From positions 141,144-205,143 of the forward strand of contig CBDBJL010000004.1 of NCBI GenBank assembly GCA_965206365.1: a stretch of DNA of 64,000 nucleotides, in the 5' to 3' direction. Origin of the DNA: Alphaproteobacteria bacterium (lineage in GTDB: Bacteria > Pseudomonadota > Alphaproteobacteria > JABAAW01 > JAHZMA01). Shown here piece after piece: positions 2,159 to 63,195 of this stretch (position 1 is the stretch's first letter; the number at the start of each line of letters is the position of its first letter). Below the pieces are notes generated by a model, which saw nothing but the letters and a program-made list of their open reading frames with translations, had not been told where the DNA came from and did no database searches. The translations under genes and the position numbers were made by a program.

Positions 2159-2185
2159 ACCAGTTTAATAAATGACGAGGTTCTC

Positions 2186-4456: not shown

Positions 4457-4480
4457 CCTTTAAAAACAGGAAGAATAATC

Positions 4481-4774: not shown

Positions 4775-4788
4775 ATAGGAGAAAAACT

Positions 4789-5247: not shown

Positions 5248-5334
5248 AAAACATGATCTTATTCACTTGATAAGCGCTCGGAATGAAGCGTTACTGTAAG
5301 TGTAAAAAGCAATTGAAAACAAGGAGATAACACT

Positions 5335-15704: not shown

Positions 15705-15802
15705 ATTTTTTTGTCCCTTGAGGTATCATAGGATTGAAAATAGTGGAAATTGAGTGAACAATCAAGTAAGTTATCGAGGAAATCAAATTATAAGACAGGG
15801 TT

Positions 15803-16834: not shown

Positions 16835-16874
16835 AACCTCGTCCTTCAGGGCGGGGATATAAGGCGCAACCGCG

Positions 16875-17297: not shown

Positions 17298-17319
17298 AGA
17301 CCAATGGTAGAGTCGAGAT

Positions 17320-20854: not shown

Positions 20855-20859
20855 GAACT

Positions 20860-21350: not shown

Positions 21351-21400
21351 TAAATAACGCTAAAGCTGACCAGCTAAAAGCTGGTGGTTTTAACCAATTA

Positions 21401-24454: not shown

Positions 24455-24528
24455 GGTCTCGTAGCTCATCAGGATAGAGCGCCAGATTCCTAATCTGGAG
24501 GTAACAGGTTCGAGTCCTGTCGAGATCG
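24455..24528 (+). tRNA. tRNA-Arg (anticodon CCT)
   Basis: Hand-folded cloverleaf: acceptor ggtctcg/cgagatc, D-arm gctc/gagc, anticodon stem ccaga/tctgg with loop ttCCTaa, T-arm acagg-ttcgagt-cctgt, discriminator G; CCA not encoded. Confidence 0.85.
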
Positions 24529-24584
24529 CCCCTTTTATCTCATTCCCAAGAAAAACCCGCTTTTATGCCTAACGAATATTGCTC

Positions 24585-28935: not shown

Positions 28936-28940
28936 AATCT

Positions 28941-29987
28941 TTAACCTAATAAAATATCTAACATTTTTTCCCGCGAAACCGCACCAATAATTTTCTTCTT
29001 ATGATCACAAACTGGGATAATTTCACGGATATCATTCATAAGATCATGAGAAACATTATGAATAGGATCTGTCGCCTTAAATGGAGCTTCCTTATCCGTA
29101 CATTGTAATTTTTTATCTATAAGAGCACCAACAGTTACGATTCGTGCTTGATAAACTTCCTCAGTAAAACGCTTAACATAATCGTTGATCGGGTTCAGTA
29201 ATAGATTGGCTGGCAGGTCAATTTGTTGAATCGCACCATCTTTCATAATCGCAATCCGATCCGCTAGACGCAGTGCCTCATCAAAATCATGCGTAATAAA
29301 AACAATCGTTTTTTTAAGCATCTGTTGCAACCGGATAAATTCATCTTGCATATCACGCCGAATTAAAGGGTCTAAGGCGGAAAAAGGCTCATCTAAAAAC
29401 CAAATATCAGGTTCGATAGCCAATGAACGAGCAATCCCTACCCGCTGTTGTTGTCCACCCGACAACTCCCGCGGAAAATAATTTTCTCTACCCTCAAGCC
29501 CAACCAACTTAACCATCTCAATGGCACGGGCATAGCAATCATGTTTGTCTTGGCCACGCATCTCAAGTGGAAAGGAAACGTTTTCAAGCACATTACGATG
29601 CGGTAACAAAGCAAAATTCTGAAACACCATCCCCATTTTGCTACGCCGCAACTCAATCAGATCCTGTTCACTCAAAGCTCCTAAATCCTGCCCTTCTACC
29701 ATAATCGTACCTGAAGTAATATCAATCAATCGCGATAAACAACGCACCAAAGTTGATTTCCCTGAGCCCGACAAACCCATAATGACTAGAATTTCACCCT
29801 CAAAAATATCTAATGACACATCATGCACTGCAGCAATATAGCCATCATCTTGAATGCTCTGAAAATCAGTATTCGCATCGCATGACTGCATGTATCGGTC
29901 TGGATTTTCACCATAAAGCTTCCAGATACCCCGGCAGTTAATAACTGCTGTTGAGGATTCAGATGATGTTTTAACCATAGCGAGCAC
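28941..29987 (-). CDS. tmoV: ABC transporter ATP-binding protein with C-terminal CBS domains (ProV/OpuAA-like)
   Basis: Walker A GLSGSGKST, signature LSGGQQQRV, Walker B IWFLDEP; CBS pair at the C-terminus. Confidence 0.85.
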   Translation of the reverse strand: MLAMVKTSSESSTAVINCRGIWKLYGENPDRYMQSCDANTDFQSIQDDGYIAAVHDVSLDIFEGEILVIMGLSGSGKSTLVRCLSRLIDITSGTIMVEGQDLGALSEQDLIELRRSKMGMVFQNFALLPHRNVLENVSFPLEMRGQDKHDCYARAIEMVKLVGLEGRENYFPRELSGGQQQRVGIARSLAIEPDIWFLDEPFSALDPLIRRDMQDEFIRLQQMLKKTIVFITHDFDEALRLADRIAIMKDGAIQQIDLPANLLLNPINDYVKRFTEEVYQARIVTVGALIDKKLQCTDKEAPFKATDPIHNVSHDLMNDIREIIPVCDHKKKIIGAVSREKMLDILLG

Positions 29988-30047
29988 CCCTTCATTCTTA
30001 TTTTTCGATGATTAAGGTAATTTTTACTACCAAAATATTATTTTTAT

Positions 30048-30086
30048 ATTAATGCCACCCCACCTTAAAAATGAGGTGGCATTAAT
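30048..30086 (-). terminator. intercistronic stem-loop between tmoX and tmoV (attenuator or partial terminator)
   Basis: 12-bp stem attaatgccacc/ggtggcattaat with 15-nt loop, followed on the minus strand by an A/T-rich run. Confidence 0.35.
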
Positions 30087-30101
30087 GATTAGGTTAAGTT
30101 T

Positions 30102-31079
<978 letters not shown>

Positions 31080-31245
31080 TTAAGGAAACTATATATTTAA
31101 CACCTTAAGTTCCAATGATCCAGTGAATTCAAATTAAAACCACCATACAACAAAACCGTAATACTTAATATATATTCTCCAAGTTAATAATCAGGGTATA
31201 AAACCTTTGATGGTTTATTACCCCATTTCCACAAAACTTGCAATC

Positions 31246-31261
31246 GCAATATTTTGTAAAA
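31246..31261. promoter_or_regulatory. perfect CRP/FNR-type box TGTGA-N6-TCACA upstream of tmoX
   Basis: tgtgaccattgtcaca lies approx. 190 bp upstream of the tmoX start codon. Confidence 0.4.
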
Positions 31262-31286
31262 ATTCTTTAAAAATTTGTGACCATTG

Positions 31287-31886
31287 TCACACATTTTCCA
31301 GATCCTGCATAATTGGCTGATTCGTTGTTGAAGTAACCCAATCAGGACAAAAACTAATTATGACAACATCTTTGGATAAATTCGGATTAAACATATGATT
31401 ATGCCACCAGCTCGCCTGATAAAAAAAACTATCTGTCTGCAACTGCTTTGCCTGACAGCAAAGCGAATATTCCTGAGTATAGGCACTGAAATGAAGCCGA
31501 CAAGCTTGACTCGCCAAAATTTGCCTAGCCCCTACTGATTCAGGCGCGAAAACTGCCGTCAGCTGATCAGAAAATTCATCTATATGCTGATAATAATATT
31601 CACTAAAAAATTTCAAGGCCTTATCGCGTCGTTGCATCAAATCATGTGTATGCCTAACAATATGCCTGAGCTCAGGTAATTTGGAAAAATCATCTGTTTT
31701 ATTTAAAATCGTTATAATATGACCGAGCGATCTGCCTTGAGAAGCCTTATTAGGGTCTAAAGTCACAATTGGCATCATCCCATCGCTCGGTCGTCCATCT
31801 TTTTCACGCACAGATATTTGGCGCACTCGACATTGCCAACGTAAAAACGACTCTTTAAGCCTTTCACCATACACAACATCTTTCAT
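31287..31886 (-). CDS. hypothetical protein within the methylamine operon
   Basis: 199 aa; co-directional and tightly spaced with the mgs genes; no recognised domain. Confidence 0.4.
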   Translation of the reverse strand: MKDVVYGERLKESFLRWQCRVRQISVREKDGRPSDGMMPIVTLDPNKASQGRSLGHIITILNKTDDFSKLPELRHIVRHTHDLMQRRDKALKFFSEYYYQHIDEFSDQLTAVFAPESVGARQILASQACRLHFSAYTQEYSLCCQAKQLQTDSFFYQASWWHNHMFNPNLSKDVVIISFCPDWVTSTTNQPIMQDLENV

Positions 31887-31920
31887 ACATTAAACTCCGT
31901 AACCATGATATCGTAACTGC

Positions 31921-32334
31921 TCAACGCTTAATATAAGCATGACGCAATTTTACCAAAGGATGTTTCTTCGACATCTGAAATTTCACCAACAATTCCCGCG
32001 CAATCATATCACGATCTTGCTGATTATCCGGCAATGAAATTGTATCGGGCACACGCACCCAACCATTAATATTACGGTCAAAAACTGCGGCATTGCCATC
32101 CTCATACCCCATATGAATATCTTCTAGCCAATTTAGATCTACCCAACCCATCACTTCCAAATATTTTTTTAAGAAAGGGGTAAGACAATCATAATCTGGT
32201 ACCAAATTTACATCATAACGATAGCCAATATGTTGGCCAATTTCTTTTTCACGTTCGCTCTCCAAGCCTTCCTTATCTTCCAGGAATTGATCCACACCTT
32301 TCAACTCAGAGCCACGATATTCTTTTCCAGCCAT
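31921..32334 (-). CDS. hypothetical protein within the methylamine operon
   Basis: 137 aa; 16 bp downstream of mgsC. Confidence 0.4.
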   Translation of the reverse strand: MAGKEYRGSELKGVDQFLEDKEGLESEREKEIGQHIGYRYDVNLVPDYDCLTPFLKKYLEVMGWVDLNWLEDIHMGYEDGNAAVFDRNINGWVRVPDTISLPDNQQDRDMIARELLVKFQMSKKHPLVKLRHAYIKR

Positions 32335-32350
32335 TTGTTAATCTCCTCTT

Positions 32351-33718
32351 CTACAGATGATGATAATCTTCGATCCCGACCGTGTGATTTGTTCCTGCCA
32401 AAGGAACTCCTGCAATTGCCGAAGCTTCCATTGTCAGAGCTGCCAAATCTTCTGGTTCTAAGGAATGTAAATTAGTTTTTCCACAAGCACGGGCAAATAG
32501 TTGCGCCTCAATGGTAAGGGTATGCAAGAAATTATAAACCCGTTCGGCCGCTTCATCAGGATTAAGCCGTTTACGAAGTACTGGATCTTGCGTTGCCACA
32601 CCCACCGGACAACGTCCAGTATGGCAATGGTAACAATAGCCCGGTTCTACACCCATTTCTTCTTGAAAATTCGCTTCATCAATATCCTTATTGCAATTAA
32701 GTGCCATCATCATAGAATGCCCAAGTGCAATCGCATCGGCTCCCAACGCAATGGCCTTCGCCACATCGGCACCATTACGAATTCCACCAGCATAGACCAA
32801 ACTAACTTGGCCTCTTTTTCCAAGATCATCAATGGCTTTACGTGCCTGCCTAATTGCAGCCATCCCCGGAACACCCGTATCCTCTGTTGCCAAATGTGGC
32901 CCAGCACCAGTACTGCCTTCCATGCCATCAATATAGATACTATCTGGATCGCATTTCACTGCCATACGAACATCATCGTAAACGCGCGCCGCACCTAATT
33001 TAAGCTGAATAGGAATTTGCCAATCTGTAACTTCGCGAATTTCTTGAATTTTCAATGCTAGATCATCCGGACCCAACCAATCAGGATGCCGAGCCGGAGA
33101 ACGCTGATCGATACCAGCTGGCAAACTCCGCATCTCAGCTACCTGATCCGTAACCTTTTGCCCCATCAAATGGCCACCCAAACCTACTTTGCAACCTTGA
33201 CCGATGAAAAATTCACACCCATCTGCCAACATTAAATGATGTGGGTTAAAACCATACCGCGATTGAATACATTGGTAAAACCATTTTGAACTATACCGTC
33301 TCTCATCAGGAATCATCCCACCTTCACCCGAACAAGTAGCCGTACCAGCCATCGTGGCTCCACGCGCCAAAGCTGTTTTTGCCTCATAGGAAAGTGCCCC
33401 GAAACTCATTCCAGTTACATAAACTGGAATATCTAACTTCAAAGGGTGCTTGGCCCGAGGACCAATAACCGTTTTCGTTTCGCATTTTTCCCGATACCCC
33501 TCAATTACAAACCGAGTAAGTGTGCCGGGTAAAAAGGTTAAATCATCCCAATGCGGTATTTTCTTAAACAACGAAAAGCCCCGCATCCGATAGCGACCCA
33601 ATTCCGCTTTAATATGAATATCATCAATCACATGAGGTGGAAAAACAAAAGAATTTCCCAATCGATTGACATCTCTATTCAAGGTTTTTTTAACTTTGCT
33701 CATATCGTTTCCATCCAT
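32351..33718 (-). CDS. mgsC: N-methylglutamate synthase subunit C (glutamate-synthase FMN-binding domain)
   Basis: GltS FMN-binding TIM-barrel signature (GGTGA, Cys cluster CYHCHTGRCP). Confidence 0.7.
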   Translation of the reverse strand: MDGNDMSKVKKTLNRDVNRLGNSFVFPPHVIDDIHIKAELGRYRMRGFSLFKKIPHWDDLTFLPGTLTRFVIEGYREKCETKTVIGPRAKHPLKLDIPVYVTGMSFGALSYEAKTALARGATMAGTATCSGEGGMIPDERRYSSKWFYQCIQSRYGFNPHHLMLADGCEFFIGQGCKVGLGGHLMGQKVTDQVAEMRSLPAGIDQRSPARHPDWLGPDDLALKIQEIREVTDWQIPIQLKLGAARVYDDVRMAVKCDPDSIYIDGMEGSTGAGPHLATEDTGVPGMAAIRQARKAIDDLGKRGQVSLVYAGGIRNGADVAKAIALGADAIALGHSMMMALNCNKDIDEANFQEEMGVEPGYCYHCHTGRCPVGVATQDPVLRKRLNPDEAAERVYNFLHTLTIEAQLFARACGKTNLHSLEPEDLAALTMEASAIAGVPLAGTNHTVGIEDYHHL

Positions 33719-33719
33719 T

Positions 33720-34589
33720 CTACAAAATTATTTTCTTTTCACTAGGCTCAAGATTATCGTAATTCCACAATTGCCTACCGGCAACAATTTTTGTGAAATG
33801 CTTAACACCCTTACTCGGCAACAAATCATATTGCGTTAATTTACGCTCCAGCCACGCTTGATCCGAACTAGTCAATTCTTCTGGCACTGCATCAACCCCA
33901 CAAGATTTAATTTCACCGCCAACATAAATTGTTCCATCATACATGGAATCACCAAGATTCTTACCCGCATTCCCACATACAACCATTCTACCACGTTGCA
34001 TCATAAAACCCGAAAGTGCCCCAGTATCACCGCCAACGATAATCGTACCACCCTTCATGTCAATACCGGTACGCGAACCAACCGAACCTCTACACACCAG
34101 ATCACCACCACGAATGGCTGCACCAAAAGTAGAACCAGCATTTTTTTCGACCAAAATCGTACCAGACATCATATTTTCACCGCACGACCAACCAACACGA
34201 CCCTTAATGCGCACATTAGGACCATCAATAAGTCCAACACCAAAATAACCTAGCGAACCTTCAAAAGTAAGGTTAAGTCGACTAAGAATCCCCACACCCA
34301 AAGAATGCTTACCACGTGGATTTTTAATGACAATACTTCCATAACCTTGCGACATTAATTCGCGAATTTTGCCATTAACCTTTATGGTTGATAGATCCGT
34401 TGTATCCAATTCAGTGCGTTTATTGTAATCAACATCTGCCGCCCAAGGATAAAGATAATTCTCTTCCTCATCTGGATTAAATTCAATAAACAGCGAGCGA
34501 CCCGTTAATTGTTCGCTCATCATTCCCAACGCTTGAACCCGTTCTTCCTGGCTCATTGCATCAAGTTTAGCATCATTTACGCTTGCCAT
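33720..34589 (-). CDS. mgsB: N-methylglutamate synthase subunit B (GXGXG-motif domain of glutamate synthase)
   Basis: Repeated GxGxG beta-helix motifs (VCRGSVGSRTGIDMKGGTIIVGGDTGA). Confidence 0.7.
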   Translation of the reverse strand: MASVNDAKLDAMSQEERVQALGMMSEQLTGRSLFIEFNPDEEENYLYPWAADVDYNKRTELDTTDLSTIKVNGKIRELMSQGYGSIVIKNPRGKHSLGVGILSRLNLTFEGSLGYFGVGLIDGPNVRIKGRVGWSCGENMMSGTILVEKNAGSTFGAAIRGGDLVCRGSVGSRTGIDMKGGTIIVGGDTGALSGFMMQRGRMVVCGNAGKNLGDSMYDGTIYVGGEIKSCGVDAVPEELTSSDQAWLERKLTQYDLLPSKGVKHFTKIVAGRQLWNYDNLEPSEKKIIL

Positions 34590-35515
34590 ACACGTATCTC
34601 CTCATCATAAGGGTCACAAGTATCAATTTCTTCTGGTAAAATAGCACGAATTGCAACTTCTTCTGATGCCATCGCAACCAAATCGTCACTCTCATATAAC
34701 ACCAAAGGTTTCGCTGCCATACTATCTTTTGCCATGCCTAGCTGATTATGAGTTGCCACCAAATAAGTAAACACCCCATCAATTTCTTCTATCGAGCGAC
34801 GCAAACTATCTTCCAAAGTTTCACCCTGAGACAAGTTGCGGGCCGTATAAACCGCCAATAATTCAGAATCACAATTCGACATAAAACGATGTCCCTCGCG
34901 CTCTAATTCACGACGCTTCAACCAATAATTGGTGACTTGTCCATTGTGAACAATCGCAATATCATTATAAGGAAATGCCCAATAAGGATGCGCCGAACGA
35001 ATATCTACATCCGACTCTGTCGCCATTCTGGTATGACCAATCGCATGAGTCCCTTGGAAATCTTCCAAGCCATAAAGCCCACTTACCACAGCTGCATCAC
35101 CCAAATCTTTAATTAATTCAAGTGCGTTACCAAAAGAAAGAATTTCCACCCCTTCAATTTCCTCAACATGTTTTGCCATCGCATAATTATCACCCTTAAA
35201 GGTTAATAAATAGCGAAGCGCGCAAGAGGTGACGCGTTGCTTAGACTTTACAACCACCTTATGAGTTTTTAGCCGCTCTTCAATTTCTATAATGCGGGCA
35301 TCAATAATATCTTCGATCCCACGCCCTTTCGCAATATCTTCATTTTCTGCAACCTTAATTCGCATGATATATTGGTCGTTAGAACCATCACTACCATAAA
35401 CCGCAAAACCAGTAGAATCTGGCCCGCGATGCTTAAGAGATTGCAACATCGAAGTCATCTGATTCCCAACACCAGAAGCCTTACCGCGATGAATCAACCC
35501 AGCAATTCCACACAT
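34577..35515 (-). CDS. mgsA: N-methylglutamate synthase subunit A (class II glutamine amidotransferase)
   Basis: N-terminal MCGIAG with catalytic Cys at position 2. Confidence 0.7.
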   Translation of the reverse strand: MCGIAGLIHRGKASGVGNQMTSMLQSLKHRGPDSTGFAVYGSDGSNDQYIMRIKVAENEDIAKGRGIEDIIDARIIEIEERLKTHKVVVKSKQRVTSCALRYLLTFKGDNYAMAKHVEEIEGVEILSFGNALELIKDLGDAAVVSGLYGLEDFQGTHAIGHTRMATESDVDIRSAHPYWAFPYNDIAIVHNGQVTNYWLKRRELEREGHRFMSNCDSELLAVYTARNLSQGETLEDSLRRSIEEIDGVFTYLVATHNQLGMAKDSMAAKPLVLYESDDLVAMASEEVAIRAILPEEIDTCDPYDEEIRVWQA

Positions 35516-35567
35516 CCCCCATTACTCCTTTTCCAATTCATTGTTCAAAATTAATTACTCTAAAATC

Positions 35568-37040
35568 TTACGGAAGGCAATTAAGATAAGTATCCACATC
35601 CCATTCAGTAACGGTATGGTTAAATCTTTCCCACTCGTCTGTTTTATATTCATGGAATAAACGATACATATCTCCAGGCATACCCGATTGCACCACCTTA
35701 TCTTTCGCAAGGGCTTCTAATGCTGCCCCTAAAGTCATAGGTAATTTTTGAACTTCCTTACCGGATTCCATCGCCGCATAAATATTACGCTCTTCTGGTT
35801 TACCGCAATCAATCTTATTATCCAATCCATCATCCACCGCCACAAGTATGGTTGTGCCCATCAAATAAGGATTTACCATTGAATCCACCGAACGAAACTC
35901 AAAACGACCCGGTGCAGAAATACGCAGACCTGTCGTTCTATTTTGAAAACCCCAATCTTTAAAGATTGGTGCCCAAAATCCAGTATCCCACAACCGACGA
36001 TAACTATTGACCGTAGAACAACCAATCGCAGTTAAAGCGTCCAAATGCTTTACAATGCCACCAATAGCGTGCTGACCAATAATTCCCGGCATTTGCGGAT
36101 CATCACCCGATGGCATGAAAGTATTTTCACCACCAGAAGAATAAGTGAAAACAGCTTCGTTAGCTGGAAGACCCCCTGATTTATGACCGAGCATTTTAAT
36201 TTTATCTTCACCACCCTTCCATAAGGAAATATTATGGTGACAACCATTAGCGGAAACACCCATAAAGGGTTTCGTCATAAAGCAAGCAATTAAACCAAAT
36301 TCACGCGCAACCTGTGCACAAATTTGCCGATAAGTCGATAATCTATCCGCATTACGCAAACAATCATCATAAGTCCAATTTAATTCTAATTGACCCGGTG
36401 CATCCTCATGATCTCCTTGAATAATATCCAAGCCCATCGCACGAGAATATTTAATTACCTGCATATAAACTTCACGCAAACTTTCAAATTGATCAATATG
36501 GTAGCAATATGGTCGCGAAAATCCACCATTGGGATTGCCATTTTCATCTTGTTTCAGCCACATCATTTCTGGTTCAGTGCCACAGCGTAGATGCATGCCA
36601 TGCTTATCTTGAAACTGCTGATGCAACCGTCGCAAATTACCACGTCCGTCTGATGTTAAAAAAGCGCCAGGATCCTGGCGCTCTTCGCGATTTCTAAATA
36701 AAGTACACCATACACGTGCAACTCGCTTATCCCATGGTAGTTGGCAAAAACTATCTGCCTCTGGAATTCCAACCAGCTCAGCTGCCTCAGGGCCATAACC
36801 AATATATTCATCATGGCGATTTTGAAACAAATTCACCGTAGCCCCATACACTAGTTGAAAACCTTTTTGTGCAATCGATTCCCAATGATCAGCGGGAATA
36901 CCCTTCCCACAAATCCGACCCGTTATCGAAACAAACTGTAAATATAAATATTCAACACCAAGAGAATCAATCTGTTTTCGCACCTGCTTAATCATATCGG
37001 CACGCCCGGGTGCCTCCACAAAACTTTCAATATCCGTCAT
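35568..37040 (-). CDS. gmaS: gamma-glutamylmethylamide synthetase (glutamine-synthetase type III-like)
   Basis: Glutamine-synthetase catalytic-domain signatures; heads the gmaS-mgsABC arrangement. Confidence 0.65.
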   Translation of the reverse strand: MTDIESFVEAPGRADMIKQVRKQIDSLGVEYLYLQFVSITGRICGKGIPADHWESIAQKGFQLVYGATVNLFQNRHDEYIGYGPEAAELVGIPEADSFCQLPWDKRVARVWCTLFRNREERQDPGAFLTSDGRGNLRRLHQQFQDKHGMHLRCGTEPEMMWLKQDENGNPNGGFSRPYCYHIDQFESLREVYMQVIKYSRAMGLDIIQGDHEDAPGQLELNWTYDDCLRNADRLSTYRQICAQVAREFGLIACFMTKPFMGVSANGCHHNISLWKGGEDKIKMLGHKSGGLPANEAVFTYSSGGENTFMPSGDDPQMPGIIGQHAIGGIVKHLDALTAIGCSTVNSYRRLWDTGFWAPIFKDWGFQNRTTGLRISAPGRFEFRSVDSMVNPYLMGTTILVAVDDGLDNKIDCGKPEERNIYAAMESGKEVQKLPMTLGAALEALAKDKVVQSGMPGDMYRLFHEYKTDEWERFNHTVTEWDVDTYLNCLP

Positions 37041-39825: not shown

Positions 39826-40611
39826 TTAGTAGTTAGAGAGAACGCCGATTTTGATCAGATAATTATCAAAGAAATCAAAATTGGCAAAATTGCCTTTCTT
39901 ATTTTTTGCTTTCACATCAGCGCCGTATTCGATTAAAATATCAATCATAGCAATCGTTTCTTCATAAGTGACATTACTAGTGGGCTCATATTGTTCATCT
40001 TCACTACATCCGCCACCTTCACTACACTCAATATAATGTTTTTCCCTATCGTATATTTGGTGTACGTATTTTCCATGAACAGCCTTAAAAAATGGGGTTT
40101 CACCATCATCATCACGGGCATTTACATCCGCCCCGGCATCTAGCAAAAGCTTGGTGATTTCAGCATTTTCAGTGTTATGCAAAGGCGTTTCTCCGTTAAT
40201 ACGATTACGGGCATTCGCATCTGCCCCTGCACTTAGTAACAGCTTAACAATTTCAGCATCGCGAGCCCAATGCAAAGGCGTATATTCCCAATAACTTTTG
40301 ATATTCACATCTGCCCCCTCTTCAATTAAGAAAATCGCAATCTCACTCCTTCCAGCAAGAAGAGCCCCAGGTAATAAAGTTTCACCATTTTCATCTCTGC
40401 TATTAATATCAATGCCCATTGCCAGTAATTCTTGAATATCAGCAAGGGTAGCGGTTTTCACATCAAAATAATATCTTATAGGATCTTCAATATCTACAAT
40501 TTCTTCCGCTTGCGCTATAACAAAAAAAAAGATTCCACCCATAAGAACACCCGTTATGAGTATGTTTATTAGCAAATTTGCGTGTTTGCTTTTTACCTTT
40601 AATTTTGCCAT
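39826..40611 (-). CDS. ankyrin-repeat protein with N-terminal signal/anchor helix
   Basis: Hydrophobic N-terminal helix followed by at least four ankyrin repeats (TPLHWA..., ETPLHNT..., ETPFFKA...). Confidence 0.8.
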   Translation of the reverse strand: MAKLKVKSKHANLLINILITGVLMGGIFFFVIAQAEEIVDIEDPIRYYFDVKTATLADIQELLAMGIDINSRDENGETLLPGALLAGRSEIAIFLIEEGADVNIKSYWEYTPLHWARDAEIVKLLLSAGADANARNRINGETPLHNTENAEITKLLLDAGADVNARDDDGETPFFKAVHGKYVHQIYDREKHYIECSEGGGCSEDEQYEPTSNVTYEETIAMIDILIEYGADVKAKNKKGNFANFDFFDNYLIKIGVLSNY

Positions 40612-41350: not shown

Positions 41351-42100
41351 CTAAACATTTTCGGGATATTCATCCCAAGTTTTTCCGCGCCATTTACGAC
41401 CTGTTTTTTTCTTATTAACACCGCCCCATTGCTTAAAGAAGAAGGCTGTGCCAGTTTTTCGGCATAATGCTTCAATTTCAGCTATCCATTCATCATCCAT
41501 ATTTCGTGCCGAAGGGCCGCTCTCGCCACCTATAATTGCCCAATCAATCGCCGTTAAATTAGCCTTAGATACCGAAGCTAATAAGGGCTCAAACGATACA
41601 AAGCGGATGGTTGCCGGCATAAGTCGTAATTCATCAAGCCTGTCAATATAAGCGTTGCTCTCAACACTTACGCCGATCCAGATATGCGCAGGCAATTGAT
41701 AATTATATTTCATCAAAAATTCTCTAGCGCGTTCCGGGCGTTTAGTTAAAATTTGAAATTCATGCCAATCGGCTTTCAGCATCGTATTAAATGCTTGTTT
41801 AATAAATTTATCGGGGACGGCTTCATAAAATAAATCCGACATAGAATTAACAAATATTTTCGCGGGTTTACGCCATTTTAGGGGTTGTGATAACAAATTT
41901 TCATCAAAACTGGCTTTTCCGGTCCAATTGGCTTTACCTTCACGTTTAACAGTGCCAATATAAAGTGGGTGTTGCATGGCTTGCAGGCGTTCTGCCATTC
42001 GAATTGCATAGCAATTTTTGCAACCTGGCGAAACCTTAAAGCAACCTTTCACTGGGTTCCATGTGCGGTCAGTCCATTCAATTTTGCTAATTTCACCCAT
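41351..42100 (-). CDS. phage Gp37/Gp68-family protein (DUF5131)
   Basis: N-terminal IEWTDRTWNPVKGC..SPGCKNCYA signature. Confidence 0.65.
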   Translation of the reverse strand: MGEISKIEWTDRTWNPVKGCFKVSPGCKNCYAIRMAERLQAMQHPLYIGTVKREGKANWTGKASFDENLLSQPLKWRKPAKIFVNSMSDLFYEAVPDKFIKQAFNTMLKADWHEFQILTKRPERAREFLMKYNYQLPAHIWIGVSVESNAYIDRLDELRLMPATIRFVSFEPLLASVSKANLTAIDWAIIGGESGPSARNMDDEWIAEIEALCRKTGTAFFFKQWGGVNKKKTGRKWRGKTWDEYPENV

Positions 42101-42103
42101 TTA

Positions 42104-42466
42104 TTACCTCTTATAATTATTTTTTAATTGATTAATTAACACTTTAATCGTTTGTTGATCATTATCAGAAAGTTTTTTTAAATCACGATACATTGCAACT
42201 AATCCAGAATCCTCATCAGAAGCATCAGGATTTTCACCAACCAAATCAGCTATTCCTACTTGAAAAAAGTCTGCCAATCTTTTGAGAAGGTCAAGTGACG
42301 GATTTTTTGCTTTGCCAGTCTCTAAATCCCAAATATGAGTTTTGGATGCACCTACCCTAGTCGCAACATCTTGAAGAGAAATAGATTTTTTAAGTCTTAA
42401 TTGTTTTAATCGCAATGCTAATGACACTTCTTTTAATTCGTAATCGGTATATTGTTCTCTATTCAT
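42104..42466 (-). CDS. XRE-family HTH transcriptional regulator
   Basis: LSLQDVATRVGASKTHIWDLETGK...PSLDLLKRLADFF, a classic HTH_3 pattern. Confidence 0.7.
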   Translation of the reverse strand: MNREQYTDYELKEVSLALRLKQLRLKKSISLQDVATRVGASKTHIWDLETGKAKNPSLDLLKRLADFFQVGIADLVGENPDASDEDSGLVAMYRDLKKLSDNDQQTIKVLINQLKNNYKR

Positions 42467-43076
42467 AATCGCTATCCTTTTCTAGCAATTTTCTACAAGG
42501 GGGAATCCATACAAGACTGGTATTTTTTTGTGGATTTTTCTCCCAAACAAACCACGCATAAGCTGTTGCGCTTTTAATTTTGCTATCAAGTCGCCCTTTT
42601 ACTAAAGGTACGCGTTCGGCAAATGGGGCAAAGATTGTGGGGGGTGTTTGAGAAAATAAACGGTTATATCGCCCTATAGATTCTGTAAAATTACCGCGAC
42701 AAAACATGGCAACGCCATCGGTGGCAAGCCCTAACGATTTTGAAATAAAACCCTCAGCTTTGTTAAAAGGGGGATTTGTAATTACCCATTGGGGCGGATG
42801 GCAATAAAAATCATCGCTTAAAAAATCTTTTACATTAGCTTTTTCATAGCCGTAATCGTGAATGTCGGCGGCATAGACATTTTCAAAATAATCCGCTAAG
42901 GTCTCCGCCATATACCCCCTGCCGCCAAGCACGCTTTTATTTGATAAAGTGCTATTTAATACATATTTAATCAGGGCGCGCGTTGCCCAGGGCGGGGTAG
43001 GAAAATCATCTAAGCCATCGCCAATTTCATGCCGTTGCGCCATTATTGCGTAGGATCCTTTGGGTATCATTTTCAA
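42459..43076 (-). CDS. phage Dam-type DNA N6-adenine methyltransferase (putative)
   Basis: NPPF motif (WVITNPPFNK) and N-terminal FPTPPWATRAL, resembling the phage Dam MTase family; adjacent to the C5 MTase gene. Confidence 0.5.
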   Translation of the reverse strand: MKMIPKGSYAIMAQRHEIGDGLDDFPTPPWATRALIKYVLNSTLSNKSVLGGRGYMAETLADYFENVYAADIHDYGYEKANVKDFLSDDFYCHPPQWVITNPPFNKAEGFISKSLGLATDGVAMFCRGNFTESIGRYNRLFSQTPPTIFAPFAERVPLVKGRLDSKIKSATAYAWFVWEKNPQKNTSLVWIPPCRKLLEKDSDYE

Positions 43077-43080: not shown

Positions 43081-43935
43081 TTAAATTAAAATTAATTGGT
43101 TGTTATTTTCGGTTTCATACTCAAGATTCTTGCAATGAATTTTCAAGAGTAAGCCACGCATATGCGCTTGCCAATGGCATAACGGAATTTCCGCAACTTC
43201 TAATTCTGTCCACCCTGTTGGCAAACCCATCATCCATTCGGTGAATTGAGGGTTTAAAATCATCTCTAACTTTTTGCCATTTTGGGGAGTCGAGTCTTGG
43301 CGCGAAAGGGGGCATCCATTCCACATGTGTGCGACTTGATCCCGCAAGGAGGCAGGCATTTTTCTTTCTAATCTCTTCTTGAAAGTTTCCTCGCTTAGCA
43401 CCCCCCCATCGCCTCTGTAGCTTTTATGGTGCGCCATAATAAATAATCGCTCTCTTTTGTGAGGCGCACCAAGCTCCTCCGCGCTGAACAAGCCAGCCGC
43501 AACTTTGTAACCCAAACATTGAAGATCTTTTGCGACATCGTAAAATCCATTAGATAAATGTTGGCGGACATTTTCAAAGAAGCAGATTTTTGGCTGAATT
43601 TCCCTGATAATTCTTGCGATTGCGTTCCACAAATAGGCGGGGTCGTTTTTGCCAAGTCGTCTACCTGCTGCGCTGAATGGCTGGCAGGGGTATCCGCCAG
43701 CAATGCAATCCACGATTCCACGCCATGGCTGGCAATCAAAGGTGGCAATATCCGCTCAAATAGGCGCGCAATCCAAGTTTCCTGCTTGCATTTGTTTTGC
43801 CAAAATTTCGCAGGCATATGTTTCCCTCTCCACGTAACATATAACGCGGCTGTTTGGCTTTGCCAATTTAATTCCGAGTTCGAGTCCGCCGATCCCGGAA
43901 CATATTGATAAAATTTTTGGGGAACAAAAATCCAC
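43081..43935 (-). pseudogene. DNA cytosine-5 methyltransferase with an in-frame TGA (complement 43756-43758) and a C7 tract (43391-43397)
   Basis: One frame carries motif I ICSGIGGLELG, motif III/IV DIATFDCQPW...GGYPCQPFSAAG, motif VI FFENV, motif VIII HKRERLF and a motif-IX-like EWMMGLPTGWT; the only interruption is a single TGA between motifs II and III; probable GTG start near 43935. Confidence 0.7.
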
Positions 43936-43938
43936 AAT

Positions 43939-44580
43939 TTAAATATCCTTTCGCAACCACTTTCCAAACCTGACGATTAATTTATCGAGGGTTTCATTAT
44001 CTAAATATCTATGGTTCATGCCGTAACCATTGCGGTCACACCAATTATCGAGTGCAAACCGGCTGGCATTGCTCTTCACTTTATCTTGCCAAAACAATTT
44101 TTCCCATTGCGCCCGCACGATGTAAATTCGTGGATTTTCATCGTCAATGAATTGCACTTTACCCTCGCGCGCCAGCATTGCTTTTAAGGCCTCAATGGCT
44201 TTATACGCCACTTGTGGGGTCATCCAATTTTCATGGTCAACCTTAATTTGCCTCTTTACAAAGGCGCGAATGGCATGATCGCTACGGTTTTCAACCACCC
44301 CTAACCAATATGCAGAAATCCAAAGCGCGCGCAATTTTTTCACAACCTCATTGTTTGGTAGGGTCGAGGTTGTTCCCCCCTTGCCAATAATCTCATCGAT
44401 AACCTTGTAAATTTGCCCTATTTGCATTTTGCCGGCAGAACTTGTATTTGTAATTCGTTTGTACAGTGCGCGCTTGCTGGCATCATCAATGCCATTATTG
44501 TTAATTTCGATGTGCAATTTAGCCAGGGCTTTGCGCTTTTCTGGGGAAGCTGGAGATTTTGCGGGTGTTTTAGCCATCAT
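43939..44580 (-). CDS. gemA: Mu gp16/GemA-like protein (DUF1018)
   Basis: LWISAYWLGVVENRSDHAIRAFVKRQ...IEALKAM aligns with the recalled Mu GemA pattern. Confidence 0.55.
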   Translation of the reverse strand: MMAKTPAKSPASPEKRKALAKLHIEINNNGIDDASKRALYKRITNTSSAGKMQIGQIYKVIDEIIGKGGTTSTLPNNEVVKKLRALWISAYWLGVVENRSDHAIRAFVKRQIKVDHENWMTPQVAYKAIEALKAMLAREGKVQFIDDENPRIYIVRAQWEKLFWQDKVKSNASRFALDNWCDRNGYGMNHRYLDNETLDKLIVRFGKWLRKDI

Positions 44581-47537: not shown

Positions 47538-48099
47538 TAGCTTTGCCTTTCGTTCGCACCGCGATCATGTCGTTATTGTTGGGGTCAAATAACATGCCAT
47601 CGCTTCTAATCTCGGGGGGGTCGCCCCCCGTATTTTTAATTAATTGAATATTTTTATCAGGGCAATTTAAATATTCGCCCGTTTTTAGATCACGCAAATA
47701 ACGCATCATTGTGGTGCGGGGAATCTTCTTTTTTCGCCCAATATTAATAAGGCTAAAAAGCTTATCAACAGTGCAATTATTTAACATGCGCAAGCTCCGC
47801 CAAATTACCGCTTGCGCGCTCTCTTCAATGGGCGTGCCGTTTTGATCAAGATGCGGTGCTTTCGCACTGGGCGCAGTTAATTTCCAAATCACCATCCCTT
47901 TATGGGGGTGGTTCGGTAATTTGCCCAAGCGTTTAACTTTGCGATTTTTAGCAAATATTTGCAAATGTTCGTCAATGCTACGCTTGCGAATGGGGGTGAT
48001 GGCACTGAGATCGGGGATGGTAAATAATAATTTACCACCCTGCGTTACCTCTTGTATTGCTTGCCAGATAGCTTGATAGCCTTTTTCGGTGATAGCCAT
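47524..48099 (-). CDS. hypothetical early-region protein
   Basis: 191 aa; contains an in-frame cgggggggtcgccccccg palindrome (47608-47627). Confidence 0.4.
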   Translation of the reverse strand: MAITEKGYQAIWQAIQEVTQGGKLLFTIPDLSAITPIRKRSIDEHLQIFAKNRKVKRLGKLPNHPHKGMVIWKLTAPSAKAPHLDQNGTPIEESAQAVIWRSLRMLNNCTVDKLFSLINIGRKKKIPRTTMMRYLRDLKTGEYLNCPDKNIQLIKNTGGDPPEIRSDGMLFDPNNNDMIAVRTKGKANELA

Positions 48100-48104: not shown

Positions 48105-48947
48105 TTACCCTTTTAAACGCGCTTTTTCAAGCGCAACAGTGGTGGCAGATGGTTTTTTTACATTGCCATTTATATCAAGTTCTATTTTTTTACGCGCTAA
48201 GGGGGTGGTTACTTGTAAATCGATGGGTGATTTGCCATCAGCTGTTAAAGTAACTTTATTTAAGCCATTATTTTTGGCATGATTCCGCAAAAGTTCAATC
48301 GATGTTACTACGCGGCGTACTTGCCCGGTGGATTTTTCGTGGACGCGTTTCATTAATTCTGGGCAAATTGCAATATCTTTCGAGTATAATTTGGCTAATT
48401 CCTGGCAATCTTTTACAGTTACCCCTTGGGCAGGTTGAAATTTTAAAATCCTATTATGGAAACGCTCGCTTTCTTTTAGATTTTTTGGCAGATTTTCTTC
48501 ACCAATCAAAATAATCGGTGTTTTTGCGCCATCATGGATCTCACGAATGAGATCGCACATCTTTCTATTCACCAAATAATCAGCTTCATCAATTATTAAA
48601 ATTCGCTTTTCATAGCTTAAAGCCTTGATAATTTTTTTCACCAATTCGTGCAAAGTATCATTTTTTGGAAAATCGATATTTATGGCATCTAAAATTTGCT
48701 TGCACAAAACTTTAGGCGTCCAGCTCCAACCCACATGGATGTTGGCGGCACCATATTGATTTGCCCCGCAAGTTGCACTAAAGGTTTTGCCATAACCGCT
48801 AAAGCCGTGGAAAGTGGCAATTCCTGGCAGATGCGATGGGCGCGTTTTCAGCGTTTCAATCAATTGATTAAAGATTGTAATATTCCCCAAGGGTGCCATT
48901 CGCACCTCCTCGGGTGTTGTTAAAAATGTGGGGTTAATTTCAGTCAT
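48105..48947 (-). CDS. MuB-like AAA+ transposition ATPase
   Basis: Walker A GFSGYGKTFS, Walker B LIIDEAD; directly downstream of the MuA-like gene. Confidence 0.7.
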   Translation of the reverse strand: MTEINPTFLTTPEEVRMAPLGNITIFNQLIETLKTRPSHLPGIATFHGFSGYGKTFSATCGANQYGAANIHVGWSWTPKVLCKQILDAINIDFPKNDTLHELVKKIIKALSYEKRILIIDEADYLVNRKMCDLIREIHDGAKTPIILIGEENLPKNLKESERFHNRILKFQPAQGVTVKDCQELAKLYSKDIAICPELMKRVHEKSTGQVRRVVTSIELLRNHAKNNGLNKVTLTADGKSPIDLQVTTPLARKKIELDINGNVKKPSATTVALEKARLKG

Positions 48948-49026: not shown

Positions 49027-51210
49027 TTATCCATGAGTCTCCAACAAATACTCCTGACCAAAAGTCTCTTCCATCATTTTGAAAGATCTATAGTTTGGCG
49101 ATTGCTGATAAATTTTTAACCATTGCGCATCCTCAATATTGATAAGCTCGCCATTTGCGATGGTTTTTTCCAAAGCTTTAGATCGTTGAAACAAAGTGGC
49201 AGGGGTTGGCGCAATTTGCACCACATTAGCGGTTGAATTTTCAGCTGATTTTTGTTCAGATGCTAGTTCTGGCGCAATTGTCCGGTTGCTGATTTTTTGT
49301 GATTTTCTAGGCAAAACATGCAAATTATTCGGCGGAATTTCGCCTTCAATAAAGCCATGCTTAATCGCATGTTCACGCCGTTGGGCATGTTTAAAATTTT
49401 CTAAAATTTTGTAAAAATCGTCATTATCAATCTGTTTTGCGGCATGGGCGATTTCGCGCTTGATCTCTTTGTTATGCGCGCGCTTGGTGGCTTTGGCAAT
49501 ATGTGCCACCGCCATGCGGTTAATACCTTCAAGCTCGGCATTATAAGCGGTGAATAAATATTCGCCATTTTCAACCCCAGATACGTAGATTTGCCCCATA
49601 TCTTCTAAATCCATCGCCACTTGTACAGTGTGTCCCATATAAAGATCTATCTCATGGGCTATAAAATAATGCCGATCCGCGCGAATACCTTTTTTGCCAA
49701 TAACGCGGGTGCCATCACCACCGGCTAATTTTGCAAACAAATAATGCATAATCGTGGGATCTTCCAAAGTTTTAATCTCACCGGTATAATTGGCTAATCT
49801 TTCAGCGGGCGAGCAACCAATCCCTTTGTGGAATCCCTGATAATAATCCTCTGCCACCCAATTGCTGGCGCGCCGCGCCAATTCATCGCGGGTTAATTTT
49901 ACTTTGCTAAACCGATCAATTTTTTCACCATTCGCCCGGGCGTTGCGATAGGCAAAGCTCTGCCTGTTTTCAATTTCAGTTTTTTCGGTAACATTATGCC
50001 CGGCATAACCGGGGTTCAGGCGCATAAAAGTGTCGTTAATAGTGCCGATAGCGCGTTCGATTCCGCCCTTTTCATGGGGTGAATAGGGGTTGGTTAAATC
50101 AATATTAATCCCGGTTTTAAACATAGCGTGCTTAAACCATTTGCTGGTGAAATCGCTACCATTATCGGTGCGCAAGCGTTCGGGCATGCCCCATTCGTTA
50201 ATTGCCCGCCGAATTAACCGTAAGGATCCGTGGGTGCTGGGTGAATCTGTAATTTCTACCAATAATCGCCGTGCATACATATCGGCGATCACATAAATAT
50301 TATATCTGCCATCATCGCAGATCACATCGGCGGGGCTAGCATCGATTTCCCATAATTCATTCGGGCGGGTAAGGTGGGCATACATTTCGCCCAAAGACAG
50401 CGCATATTTGCTGCGGGCTTTATCGGGGTTGCGTAATTTTAGCGCATCTGCGGGGTTTTTACGTGCCCAAGCATTAAACCAGTTGGCAATTTGGCGCGTT
50501 GAGGGAATTTCTTGAAACCCCTTTGCCAATAATAATTGATGGATTGTTTTGCCTGCCAAGCGAGTGCGCGTAAAATGCGCGATAATCTGGGTTTGTAGGT
50601 CGCGATTTGCATCAATAATGCTAGTGCCTTTGCGGTTGCCAAACTTGCCGGCAAGGCTTTTGAAATCGCCAATATTAACGGCTTTGCGCCACCGTAAAAC
50701 ACTGGCACGCGAAATATTAGTAAAGGCAAAATCGCCTGTAATTTTTCCCGAATTAAAATCATCTACAAAAGCGTCAATTCCTGCCATAACACCAATTTTA
50801 TGCGCTAATAAATAAGCGTTAAAAGCGTTGGCAATATCGGCGCGCGCGATACCGCGATCAATAGATTTAGGCAAGGTAGCAATGGTGGGCGAGGGGTTGC
50901 CCATATTGCTACCTCTATCAGCTGGTGGTAAGGCTTTGCCGGAACCACCCTCCTGATTCTGCACTCTTCCCTTTAGATGATAATTGGCGGGGGGGTTAAG
51001 GGGGGTGTCGCTCGGCGCGACATCGCACCCCCCTTTATAAATTGCAGGGATTTTATATTCGGCACCCCCGCCCTGATCGCGGCGAATTTGGCTTTGCCAG
51101 CCATCACGCTTGGCTTTATCGACAATAGCCCGCCGGGTTTTGGGCAGAGTGGCGATTTGCAATTTTGCAATTTCACCGGCAGATAGCCATATTTTGGCAC
51201 TATCTGGCAT
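49027..51210 (-). CDS. MuA-like DDE transposase
   Basis: N-terminal HTH and rve-type DDE core (WEIDASPADV, YVIADMYARRLL); carries an in-frame palindromic element at 50985-51034. Confidence 0.8.
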   Translation of the reverse strand: MPDSAKIWLSAGEIAKLQIATLPKTRRAIVDKAKRDGWQSQIRRDQGGGAEYKIPAIYKGGCDVAPSDTPLNPPANYHLKGRVQNQEGGSGKALPPADRGSNMGNPSPTIATLPKSIDRGIARADIANAFNAYLLAHKIGVMAGIDAFVDDFNSGKITGDFAFTNISRASVLRWRKAVNIGDFKSLAGKFGNRKGTSIIDANRDLQTQIIAHFTRTRLAGKTIHQLLLAKGFQEIPSTRQIANWFNAWARKNPADALKLRNPDKARSKYALSLGEMYAHLTRPNELWEIDASPADVICDDGRYNIYVIADMYARRLLVEITDSPSTHGSLRLIRRAINEWGMPERLRTDNGSDFTSKWFKHAMFKTGINIDLTNPYSPHEKGGIERAIGTINDTFMRLNPGYAGHNVTEKTEIENRQSFAYRNARANGEKIDRFSKVKLTRDELARRASNWVAEDYYQGFHKGIGCSPAERLANYTGEIKTLEDPTIMHYLFAKLAGGDGTRVIGKKGIRADRHYFIAHEIDLYMGHTVQVAMDLEDMGQIYVSGVENGEYLFTAYNAELEGINRMAVAHIAKATKRAHNKEIKREIAHAAKQIDNDDFYKILENFKHAQRREHAIKHGFIEGEIPPNNLHVLPRKSQKISNRTIAPELASEQKSAENSTANVVQIAPTPATLFQRSKALEKTIANGELINIEDAQWLKIYQQSPNYRSFKMMEETFGQEYLLETHG
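50985..51034. repeat. G6/C6 palindromic element inserted in frame in the transposase gene
   Basis: gggggggttaaggggggtgtcgctcggcgcgacatcgcaccccccttt encodes KGGCDVAPSDTPLNPP within MuA. Confidence 0.6.
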
Positions 51211-53994: not shown

Positions 53995-54663
53995 ATGCTA
54001 AAGAATATTTCAGAATTTATTGAAAATAGAATTAAAATTAATGGAACTAATCCGAGAGCACTTTCGCTTGCGGCAGGATTAACGCATTGCGCGGTTCATG
54101 AATTGATAAGTGGCAAAACTAAATCTCCATCATTTAAAAATATGAATTTAATACTAGAAGCTCTTAATTGCCGGTTAGAAATTATCACCCCCGAAAATGA
54201 TAGCATTGCACTTTCTGCGCCGAAAAAACAGATAACACCTTCACGCAATGTTGAATTACGGGGTTTAACCCCCTGCGGCGGTGGCGAATGGTTTGAATTT
54301 GATCATGGTAGAATTCAAGCCAAATGCCCACCAGATTTAGAAGATCCAGATGCTTTTGCCGTTATCACCAAAGGCGAATCATTGCAACCTTTTGGCATTT
54401 GGCCAGGGTTTCTATGTTTTTGTTCGCCAAACACAAAGCCAAATCCTGGCGATATTTGCATGATTGAACGAATCGATGGCTTAACTACGTTAAAAAAATT
54501 TGCTTCCGATGATGGGCTGGTTCAAATTTTTGTGGAATATTCGAATTCAACAGAAAATTACGCAGGTATCACCCAAAAGCTTTTTGAACTAAAAATGGAT
54601 AAAAACATGATTCACCGCCTATCAGTAGTAATGCACATTATTACCCGCCCCGTTTTCAGATAA
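53995..54663 (+). CDS. CI/LexA-like repressor (HTH plus S24 peptidase)
   Basis: N-terminal HTH; S24 catalytic Ser in GESLQP and Lys in TLKKF. Confidence 0.8.
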   Translation: MLKNISEFIENRIKINGTNPRALSLAAGLTHCAVHELISGKTKSPSFKNMNLILEALNCRLEIITPENDSIALSAPKKQITPSRNVELRGLTPCGGGEWFEFDHGRIQAKCPPDLEDPDAFAVITKGESLQPFGIWPGFLCFCSPNTKPNPGDICMIERIDGLTTLKKFASDDGLVQIFVEYSNSTENYAGITQKLFELKMDKNMIHRLSVVMHIITRPVFR

Positions 54664-62959: not shown

Positions 62960-63195
62960 TGATGCGGGGGGATCACAAGGGGGGATATCGCAAAGCATTG
63001 GGCGTACCGCCTCAATGTTGAGAAGCGATACCGCTCCCCCCTTGAAAAGTAATGATGCGGGGGGATCACAAGGGGGGATATCGCAAAGCATTGGGCGTAC
63101 CGCCTCAATGTTGAGAAGCGATACCGCTCCCCCCTTGAAAAGTAATGATGCGGGGGTCAAGGGGGTTATGCCGATTAGGCATTCCGCACCCCCTT
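62945..63195. repeat. tandem array (2 exact 93-bp units plus partial) of the same palindromic element between portal and F genes
   Basis: Unit gaaaagtaatgatgcggggggatcacaaggggggatatcgcaaagcattgggcgtaccgcctcaatgttgagaagcgataccgctccccccttg at 62951, 63044 and partially at 63137. Confidence 0.8.

Follow-up and report, generated by a model that had tools for sequence, protein, structure and literature searches.

Two C5-cytosine methyltransferases (C5-methylases) that consist of two polypeptides are the closest described relatives, in layout, of the gene reported here. As presented in the passages on M.EcoHK31I (E. coli HK31, YGGCCR) in PMC2836561 and PMC3404938, that enzyme is a heterodimer: the alpha chain carries motifs I-VIII, motif X and the target recognition domain (TRD), a different reading frame within the alpha gene encodes the beta chain, which carries motif IX, and activity needs both chains (both sources citing Lee, Kam and Shaw 1995). 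M.AquI of Synechococcus PCC 7002, in the account given in PMC3404938, is split into an alpha subunit with motifs I-VIII and a beta subunit with motifs IX-X. A literature search for an overlapping open reading frame (ORF) layout in phage methylases found nothing beyond these two enzymes. Here we describe a C5-methylase gene on the minus strand of a 64,000-nucleotide (nt) stretch of alphaproteobacterial DNA (the window), where it stands among the early genes of a Mu-like prophage. With a probability of roughly 80%, we read it as a dead phage orphan C5-methylase belonging to a family that resembles M.EcoHK31I in using two frames of the same DNA.

The likeness to M.EcoHK31I is one of layout as described. 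In both cases a different frame of the same DNA encodes a second polypeptide with a motif-IX-like segment (here termed B), and the alpha chain of the window family has motifs I-VIII and X but lacks IX. Unlike in M.EcoHK31I, the second ORF spans the whole alpha gene, shares its start region (2-7 nt apart, same Shine-Dalgarno sequence) and often ends beyond the alpha stop; the repeat-rich TRD-like region sits in B, whereas M.EcoHK31I has its TRD on alpha; and the genes are phage orphans outside any restriction-modification (R-M) pair, the window copy being apparently inactivated as well. With M.AquI the family shares the division of a C5-methylase into two polypeptides, in a fold that tolerates a split between motifs VIII and IX, but it keeps motif X with I-VIII on alpha, whereas M.AquI has X together with IX on the small subunit. 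The two ORFs of M.AquI overlap only briefly, in contrast to the whole-gene overlap seen here.

The first-pass annotation had proposed a prophage C5-methylase gene on the minus strand, and this is borne out. The frame opening at GTG 43935 matches Pfam PF00145 over profile positions 2-180 (E 2e-34), has M.HhaI as its best match among solved structures (E 6e-13), and contains motifs I (SGIGG, LSICSGIGGLELG), IV (GGYPCQPFS), VI (FFENV) and VIII (HKRERLFIMA). The further claim that all motifs share this frame proved wrong. We aligned the best 120 database homologs (clusters) and compared them with the window by tblastn: every one of the 120 aligns over the N-terminal two thirds in the GTG 43935 frame, with a median match end at 43405, and in 114 of them the C-terminal 55-80 residues, motif X included, match the frame of ORF 43121..43324. 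Motif X (GNSVMP, RIRSCGNSVMPLASAYAW) thus lies outside the GTG 43935 frame, in a GTG-initiated ORF of 67 amino acids, and since the two ends of the homologs match in differing frames, there is a frameshift between motif VIII and motif X. A reconstruction that followed the first frame to GWT and then passed to motif X was abandoned, since from about 43309 upward it is the other frame to which 114 homologs align. The TGA is therefore not the sole interruption, as had been supposed, and the alpha stop is found at 43121-43123 and not at 43081.

What follows the frameshift in the GTG 43935 frame is part of the overlapping B ORF, including the segment FTEWMMGLPTGW that had been taken for a IX-like motif of the methylase frame itself. 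The C-terminal domain of B is matched by phrog_1008 and phrog_27243, and the window retains the motif-IX-like LNPQFTEWMMGLPTGWT. At the other end of the gene, the start reads TTGTGG, so that the TTG of B overlaps the GTG of alpha, in a context homologous to the AAGGAG-N6-ATGTGG of L093. This locus (on a T7-like contig from TARA) and L094 (from a metagenome, on a short contig) are the two nearest relatives with fetchable DNA; the window and L093 share 59% nucleotide identity. The coordinates of all elements are collected in Table 1.

Table 1. Elements of the C5-methylase locus and adjoining or related prophage genes (positions within the window).
Feature	Coordinates	Strand	Remarks
Alpha ORF, N-terminal part	43399..43935	minus	start GTG 43935-43933; PF00145; assigned by tblastn with 120 homologs
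Alpha, stranded C-terminal part	43121..43397	minus	third frame, WMPPFAPRLDSPKW...KPSIHRMDDGFANRVDRIRSCGNSVMPLASAYAW; stop TGA 43123-43121
B ORF, N-terminal part	43395..43937	minus	+1 frame of alpha; start TTG 43937-43935; stop TAA 43397-43395
B ORF, C-terminal part	43081..43398	minus	fused in frame to alpha N-terminus; ...LSEETFKKRLERKMPASLRDQVAHMW...LNPQFTEWMMGLPTGWTELEVAEIPLCHWQAHMRGLLLKI...; stop TAA 43083-43081
Premature TGA in alpha	43756..43758	minus	in-frame, at an invariant Trp codon (APIW), Trp60
G7 run (C7 on plus strand)	43401..43407	minus (coding)	Gly-Gly in both frames
1-nt deletion, likeliest site	43396..43400	minus	probable loss of a C that followed TGC (Cys) and preceded CTA (Leu) in the B frame
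GemA-like gene	43939..44580	minus	PF06252, E 2e-24; stop TAA 43941-43939 abuts the alpha/B start site
NPPF (gamma-class-like) DNA methyltransferase	42459..43076	minus	phrog_799, E 2e-45; open ORF
Helix-turn-helix (HTH) regulator	42104-42466	minus	full length; between NPPF methylase and DUF5131 gene
DUF5131/Gp37-Gp68 gene	41351-42100	minus	full length
Repressor	53995-54663	plus	

The first lesion, the in-frame TGA, had been correctly located. The homologs have tryptophan at this codon in 120 of 120 cases, so a single G-to-A change (TGG to TGA) accounts for it. The stop cuts alpha off after 59 residues, and in the B frame the same base change turns a conserved glycine (RL[F/S]G) into glutamate. 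A suggestion made earlier was that the stop might be bypassed, and one can imagine a programmed recoding in which the TGA is read as tryptophan (or selenocysteine) and the ribosome shifts from one frame into the other. Of the stop codons, UGA is the one that tRNA-Trp misreads most readily, the TGA stands exactly at a Trp codon, as in recoded phages (TGA to Trp, genetic code 4) and in selenoprotein genes, and both frames are open downstream of it. Unlike in those systems, TGA is the normal stop of 11 of the 29 prophage ORFs, the stranded motif X ORF among them, and the same 29 use about 100 TGG codons for tryptophan; the tRNA scan found only tRNA-Arg(CCT) and no suppressor, and there is no SECIS-like (selenocysteine insertion sequence) structure. 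RNA folds compared with shuffled sequences showed no structure downstream of the TGA (z +0.67) or of the G7 run (z +1.38), an Rfam search of the TGA/run region at E <= 1 gave no match, the run is out of register for an X_XXY_YYZ slippery site, and none of the 120 homologs has a stop at the TGA position. Recoding is thus very hard to sustain, and we give it next to no weight.

The second lesion is the loss of one base, placed by the sequence comparison within 43396-43407, at or just 3' of a G7 run. The first-pass annotation had noticed this run inside the gene, although ten bases away from its actual position, at 43391-43397. A MAFFT DNA alignment with L093 and L094 shows one single-base gap, ATGGGGGGGTG-CTAAGC against ATGGGTGGATGTTTGAGC and ATGGGTGGCTGTCTCAGC. 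At the run itself, relatives read ATGGGTGGATGT and ATGGGTGGCTGT (GGTGGA or GGTGGC), and at the deletion site both L093 and L094 encode MGGCLS in B; this retention of Cys-Leu favours the loss of a C directly 3' of the run. The missing base is therefore most likely that C, judging from the alignment, with a G lost inside the adjacent run as the alternative, and the run itself is probably ancestral and not the lesion. The notion that an eighth G would restore the gene was revised once the alignment had put the gap just after the run. As a consequence of the lost base, B runs into the TAA at 43397-43395, the alpha N-terminus is joined to the B C-terminus, and motif X is stranded.

The proximity of the run to the lesion had also raised the idea of a phase-variable methylase, in which slippage of the G/C tract switches alpha and B on and off, the present state being off. 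The run is indeed within 3 nt of the frameshift, one extra base would restore both ORFs, and 5 of the 120 homolog clusters are similar frameshift variants joining the N-terminus to B. As in the phasevarion methylases of Haemophilus, Neisseria, Helicobacter and Campylobacter, a G/C run lies inside a methylase ORF near a frameshift; unlike theirs, it is short at 7 bases, is not shared across the family and is probably not the mutated site, and it is accompanied by a TGA that slippage cannot revert and that holds alpha off at any tract length. Among 78 related genes, 68 lack any run of G/C >=6 or A/T >=7, and a run at the site found in the window is absent from all of them. Alignment with the nearest relatives puts the gap after the run, and this, together with the Cys-Leu that they keep, favours loss of C over loss of G, and the frameshift of L008 occurs elsewhere, at a non-repetitive site inside the motif VIII codons. 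Moreover, G/C hexamer runs are a general compositional trait of the prophage (39000-64000), where runs of at least 6 number 30 against 7-12 expected under Markov models, an enrichment of about 3-4 times, and runs of at least 7 number 5 against 1.9-3.6 expected, which is not exceptional. In the host part of the window, runs of at least 6 are not over-represented (4 observed, 5-9 expected). Taken together, phase variation appears quite improbable for this gene.

A more prosaic alternative is that the gene is intact in the organism and that a draft or metagenome-derived contig has introduced the TGA, the missing base or both through errors of sequencing or assembly. All that is known of the genome is one 220,017-bp contig of an uncultured-type alphaproteobacterium from a poorly sampled lineage, the proteins that we looked up all being singleton clusters at 90% identity; a 1-nt indel beside a G7 run is a typical error site; and both frames are otherwise free of further stops. 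Against this, two independent defects would have to fall within 360 nt, and a G-to-A substitution is atypical as a homopolymer error. Other G7/C7 runs in prophage genes (47614-47620, 50989-50995) are in frame, and the prophage ORFs examined other than the methylases are full length relative to their profiles. In addition, the neighbouring NPPF methylase carries an in-frame 9-nt deletion that cannot be an error of the frameshift type. Finally, alpha departs from its homologs at 12 columns that are conserved to at least 90% (homolog median 1), among them Arg100, invariant in 120 of 120, as well as His101 and Pro104. An error at this locus is consequently improbable, though less so than phase variation.

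The reading that we prefer is that of a dead gene, the annotation having been right to suspect inactivation. In intact genes of the family, alpha and B overlap over their whole length, starting a few nt apart behind one ribosome-binding site, and by analogy with M.EcoHK31I the active enzyme would be a complex of alpha and B. The TGG-to-TGA change at Trp60 would by itself kill alpha. Independently of it, the 1-nt deletion would swap the frames, leading the alpha N-terminus into the B C-terminus, truncating B and leaving motif X in a frame that is not read. With neither alpha nor B makeable, no m5C methylation is expected from the window gene. That the gene nevertheless looks nearly intact is explained by the second, fully overlapping open frame that the family holds.

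The family was characterized from an IMG/VR search that matched more than 595 stretches, and frames were mapped in about 70 of 85 IMG/VR loci, those in which motifs IV, VI and VIII could be located. Downstream of motif VIII, every related gene that we read carries two long open frames on the same strand. The alpha frame contains motifs I-VIII with the strand LFILA, and motif X (GNGVVP), seen in about 67 loci, is alpha-framed in all but three. Its overall layout is RERLFILAY, a poorly conserved linker, and then FPPxPxxxxxW...RMADGLAxRVDRIRACGNGVVP (motif X); no E..[LM]MG.P segment occurs in the alpha frame of the mapped loci. B, the +1 frame of alpha, starts with a part that is merely an off-frame shadow of alpha, continues with 1-6 W/L-PTPxAxD repeats per locus, and ends with LNPxFxE[WA]LMGxPxGWT plus a conserved tail. 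The PTP repeats have +1-frame matches in 68 of 70 loci, with stray tetrapeptide matches in another frame in about 30, the pattern being a loose one. Of about 70 loci, the narrow motif-IX-like pattern F.EWLMG.P picks out 12, and in 11 of these it stands in the +1 frame; the remaining loci are mostly high-GC, and those of their B translations that we read carry the variant FVEALMGWP in the +1 frame.

The open stretch of B begins at about the alpha start and reaches to within about 15 nt of the alpha stop, whereas stops abound in the third frame. The starts of alpha and B lie 2-7 nt apart behind one Shine-Dalgarno sequence, a strong AAGGAG in the case of L093. They take the form ATGTGG, GTGTGG or TTGTGG, with the embedded GTG as the alpha start, or, in a high-GC clade, ATGCATGACCTGG, where the ATG of alpha and the ATG of B are 4 nt apart; the shared [ATG]TGTGG start is present in only 13 of 78 loci. 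Examples of loci with two overlapping ORFs are L089 (680-2122), L090 (964-2097), L091 (771-2072) and L093 (3001-3900).

The same two-ORF layout occurs in annotated phages of the family, namely C75C1 (CDS0012), Burkholderia phage phi1026b (gp68), Synechococcus phage Yong-M2-251 and Acidovorax phage Alfacinha1 (gp46), with one ORF annotated and never both. It is alpha that is annotated in the first three; in Alfacinha1 it is the B frame that bears the name 'cytosine-specific methyltransferase', alpha being unannotated. These genes are situated in the early/replication region, beside other methylases, ParB-like or PAPS-reductase-like (3'-phosphoadenosine 5'-phosphosulfate) genes and, unlike the window copy with its nonsense codon and frameshift, they have both frames intact. 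On the TARA contig L093, only B was called as a gene, with no Pfam match. Pfam and NCBIfam scans of B-frame proteins found no model that matches B; PHROGs does have one, phrog_1008, labelled 'DNA methyltransferase'. A phmmer search with the B C-terminus of the window (43084-43401) against 1.84 billion representatives returned 230 clusters at E <= 1e-3. Of the 148 that were read, 3 have PCQ..ENV in the same chain and about 32 begin with the alpha shadow, the others consisting of PTP repeats plus the LNP..EWLMG end.

To assess whether both frames are kept open, we compared the observed stops with those in synonymous-codon shuffles. The first shuffle test pooled the codons of both gene halves, a possible source of bias, and was repeated segment by segment. 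In C75C1 (GC 0.48), the +1 frame of the 1440-nt alpha coding sequence contains 2 stops against 13.4 expected, with 0 of 2000 shuffles as low, and the two are its first codon and the terminator of B itself; the +2 frame, as a contrast, contains 35. Conversely, shuffling the B codons of C75C1 predicts 17 stops in the alpha frame, against 0 observed (0 of 2000 shuffles as low). Within the linker, the alpha frame given the B codons has 0 stops against 7.1 in C75C1 (P 0.0005) and 0 against 5.0 in L009 (P 0.001). In the N-terminal 480 nt of six low- or mid-GC loci, the +1 frame has 0 stops against 2.5-5.5 (P 0.001-0.025 each). With both frames far below the shuffled counts, each ORF appears to be held free of stops along its full length. 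The two also differ in a complementary way in where they are conserved: in comparison with L093, window identity over the N-terminus, middle and C-terminus is 57/23/50% for alpha and 39/57/40% for B. The two-ORF architecture is thus statistically well supported, and it is barely represented in curated resources.

From these observations, and from the M.EcoHK31I precedent, B would be translated and needed. We think it rather more probable than its opposite, and hold with clearly less assurance than the inactivation of the window gene, that a large family of phage orphan C5-methylases, with cultured phages such as phi1026b among its members, consists of two full-length overlapping +1 ORFs of about 0.8-1.5 kb, each meaningful in the stretches where the other is filler, both translated and assembling into the enzyme, with alpha providing the catalytic core and motif X, and B providing target recognition through the PTP repeats together with motif IX.

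The recurrence of chimeric ORFs raises the question of whether the frameshifted arrangement in the window could itself be functional, as a fusion of the alpha N-terminus with the B C-terminus (I-VIII + TRD + IX) that works with the separate motif X ORF (43121-43324) in the manner of M.AquI. Frameshift fusions of this kind make up 5 of the 120 best homolog clusters; P0043, P0052, P0076, P0077 and P0116 match the GTG 43935 frame right up to 43081 (E ~1e-11 to 1e-14; for example LNPQFTEWLMGWPTGWTELEPAATAWCLWW against LNPQFTEWMMGLPTGWTELEVAEIPLCHW in the window, E ~1e-14), 3 of 148 B-domain proteins join PCQ..ENV to B, and the motif X piece has its own GTG-initiated 67-residue ORF. In the window, on the other hand, any fusion would be deprived of motifs I and II by the TGA. 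Fusions account for a small minority of the family, and L008 at least is a single base short of the intact L012-L014, at the motif VIII site mentioned above. No start signal or conservation was seen for a separate motif X ORF. Such a functional fusion is, in our estimate, about as remote as recoding.

Several points weigh against the dead-gene reading and the family model. Both lesions rest on one assembled copy, and an error at either is possible: exact-protein look-ups of GemA, the NPPF methylase, TipJ, DnaB and P0121 found no second copy of the genome or prophage, a scan of genome contigs by protein and by a 30-mer with TGR found no close relative, and the same 30-mer had no match in viral and metagenome contigs. 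The 12 alpha departures may reflect relaxed constraint or plain lineage divergence, and could well be the latter, the nearest homologs being only 46-63% identical. As to the family, we infer the translation of B in its members, and high-GC members carry no statistical information on frame openness, an open +1 frame being expected by chance at high GC. Evidence tying B's LNPxFxEWLMGxPxGWT to canonical motif IX is weak, no more than suggestive: with hhalign its sole hit is M.HhaI 272-294 (RKLHPRECARVMGYPDSYKV), at E 0.065, a PDB profile search with the B C-terminus found nothing, and Pfam gave no match. Finally, L003, L015 and L018 have stops in the alpha frame of the linker right after motif VIII, yet 700-1000 nt further downstream motif X keeps to the alpha frame, and B is intact; they are either pseudogenes or a variant in which alpha itself is split, and a model of alpha read straight through does not fit all members.

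Immediately downstream, the second methylase had been described as Dam-type and apparently intact. Its ORF (42459-43076) is open, as stated, but the type is different: it has no Pfam or NCBIfam match, and instead of the MethyltransfD12 domain and DPPY motif of the alpha-class Dam type it shows a phrog_799 match and an NPPF motif. Nor does its S-adenosylmethionine (SAM) binding motif look intact. Motif I reads L-G---GRGYM instead of LEPAC(G/N)RGYM, with P-A-C gone through an in-frame 9-nt (3-codon) deletion (junction about 42921-42929) and E replaced by G; the canonical form is kept in 118-119 of 119 homologs, which makes the window protein unique among 120 sequences. It also shows 15 deviations at columns conserved to at least 90%, against a maximum of 10 in any of the 119 homologs. 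Judging from these changes, the NPPF methylase is probably dead despite its open ORF. With its SAM-binding motif core lost, the prophage methylation module as a whole looks inactivated, and both DNA-modification genes of an otherwise intact-looking prophage seem to be disabled. Their loss may have been neutral or selected. The Gp37/Gp68 gene reported next to the methylase does exist, as a DUF5131 gene, with the HTH regulator intervening.

The prophage itself shows the Mu-like markers MuA-type transposase, MuB, Gam, GemA and a Mor/C-type late activator (phrog_310, phrog_296, phrog_491, PF06252 and phrog_836). On the minus strand, the early genes run from a ParB-like gene through MuA (49027-51210), MuB (48105-48947), Gam, DnaB, DUF6378 and GemA to the methylase pair, the HTH regulator, the DUF5131 gene and an ankyrin-repeat gene, and the late activator, lysis genes, terminase and portal occupy the part starting at 56791, a layout that we take to be BcepMu-like. 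The genes for MuA, MuB, Gam, GemA, the late activator, terminase and portal are full length. The ankyrin-repeat protein (39826-40611), at the distal end of the early operon, has a predicted N-terminal hydrophobic segment; its gene lies in the lowest-GC stretch of the window (34-37%) and may be a moron. Across the 3' end of the portal gene (61349-62959) lies a perfect 93-bp tandem repeat (62945-63156) of 2.3 copies with 100% identity; the repeat contains many G6/C6 runs, and a similar pattern of G/C runs is present at 62551-62704.

Elsewhere in the window, a defence island (7799-23224) adjoins tRNA-Arg(CCT) at 24455-24530. It comprises a type I R-M system (hsdR 7799-11002, hsdM 13031-15547), an IS200/IS605 tnpA with TnpB (16875-18489), a RecB-like nuclease/SF1 helicase (18446-20854) and a GmrSD type IV restriction enzyme (21401-23224). 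Its hsdS is split into two ORFs (12246-13034 and 11723-12307) that overlap, lie in different frames and have one Methylase_S domain apiece, and may be a frameshifted or half-HsdS arrangement; an ORF with a BRO-N domain (10875-11726) lies between hsdS and hsdR. BrxU, a relative of GmrSD, cuts 5mC DNA, and EcoCT596 GmrSD, a relative of Eco94GmrSD, acts poorly on it; that the host GmrSD provided a selective reason for losing the prophage m5C methylase is speculation. A host methylated-amine cluster follows (24585-37040). It includes a trimethylamine N-oxide demethylase (24585-26990), for which NCBIfam NF053776 scores above its cut-off, and a gene of the glutamine-synthetase family (35568-37040) whose best NCBIfam match, type III glutamate-ammonia ligase, is below cut-off. 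The product of the latter shares 82-86% identity with its best homologs; those that carry names (about 82%) belong to Kiloniellaceae, Methyloligella and Aurantimonas. Positions 1-5631 hold phage-tail or gene transfer agent (GTA)-like genes, including a TipJ-family host-specificity protein (2186-4456), at a GC content of about 51% against 40-44% elsewhere in the window, an element separate from the Mu-like prophage.

The window gene itself is an ordinary pseudogene from which little follows for the host, no m5C mark being expected, and the family-wide alpha/B architecture is the noteworthy by-product. Pseudogene calls may be led astray here, as a frameshift in a two-frame family yields another long motif-bearing ORF and no obvious wreck. 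Public records annotate one frame or the other at random, and B goes unrecognised by Pfam and NCBIfam. Should both ORFs be expressed, as the stop statistics and the M.EcoHK31I precedent suggest, they would be among the longest conserved same-strand overlaps in bacterial viruses. The model, if true, would also explain thousands of 'hypothetical proteins' that begin MxWLYxP..., and specificity predictions for phage C5-methylases would have to be made differently, the recognition region lying in the unannotated frame.

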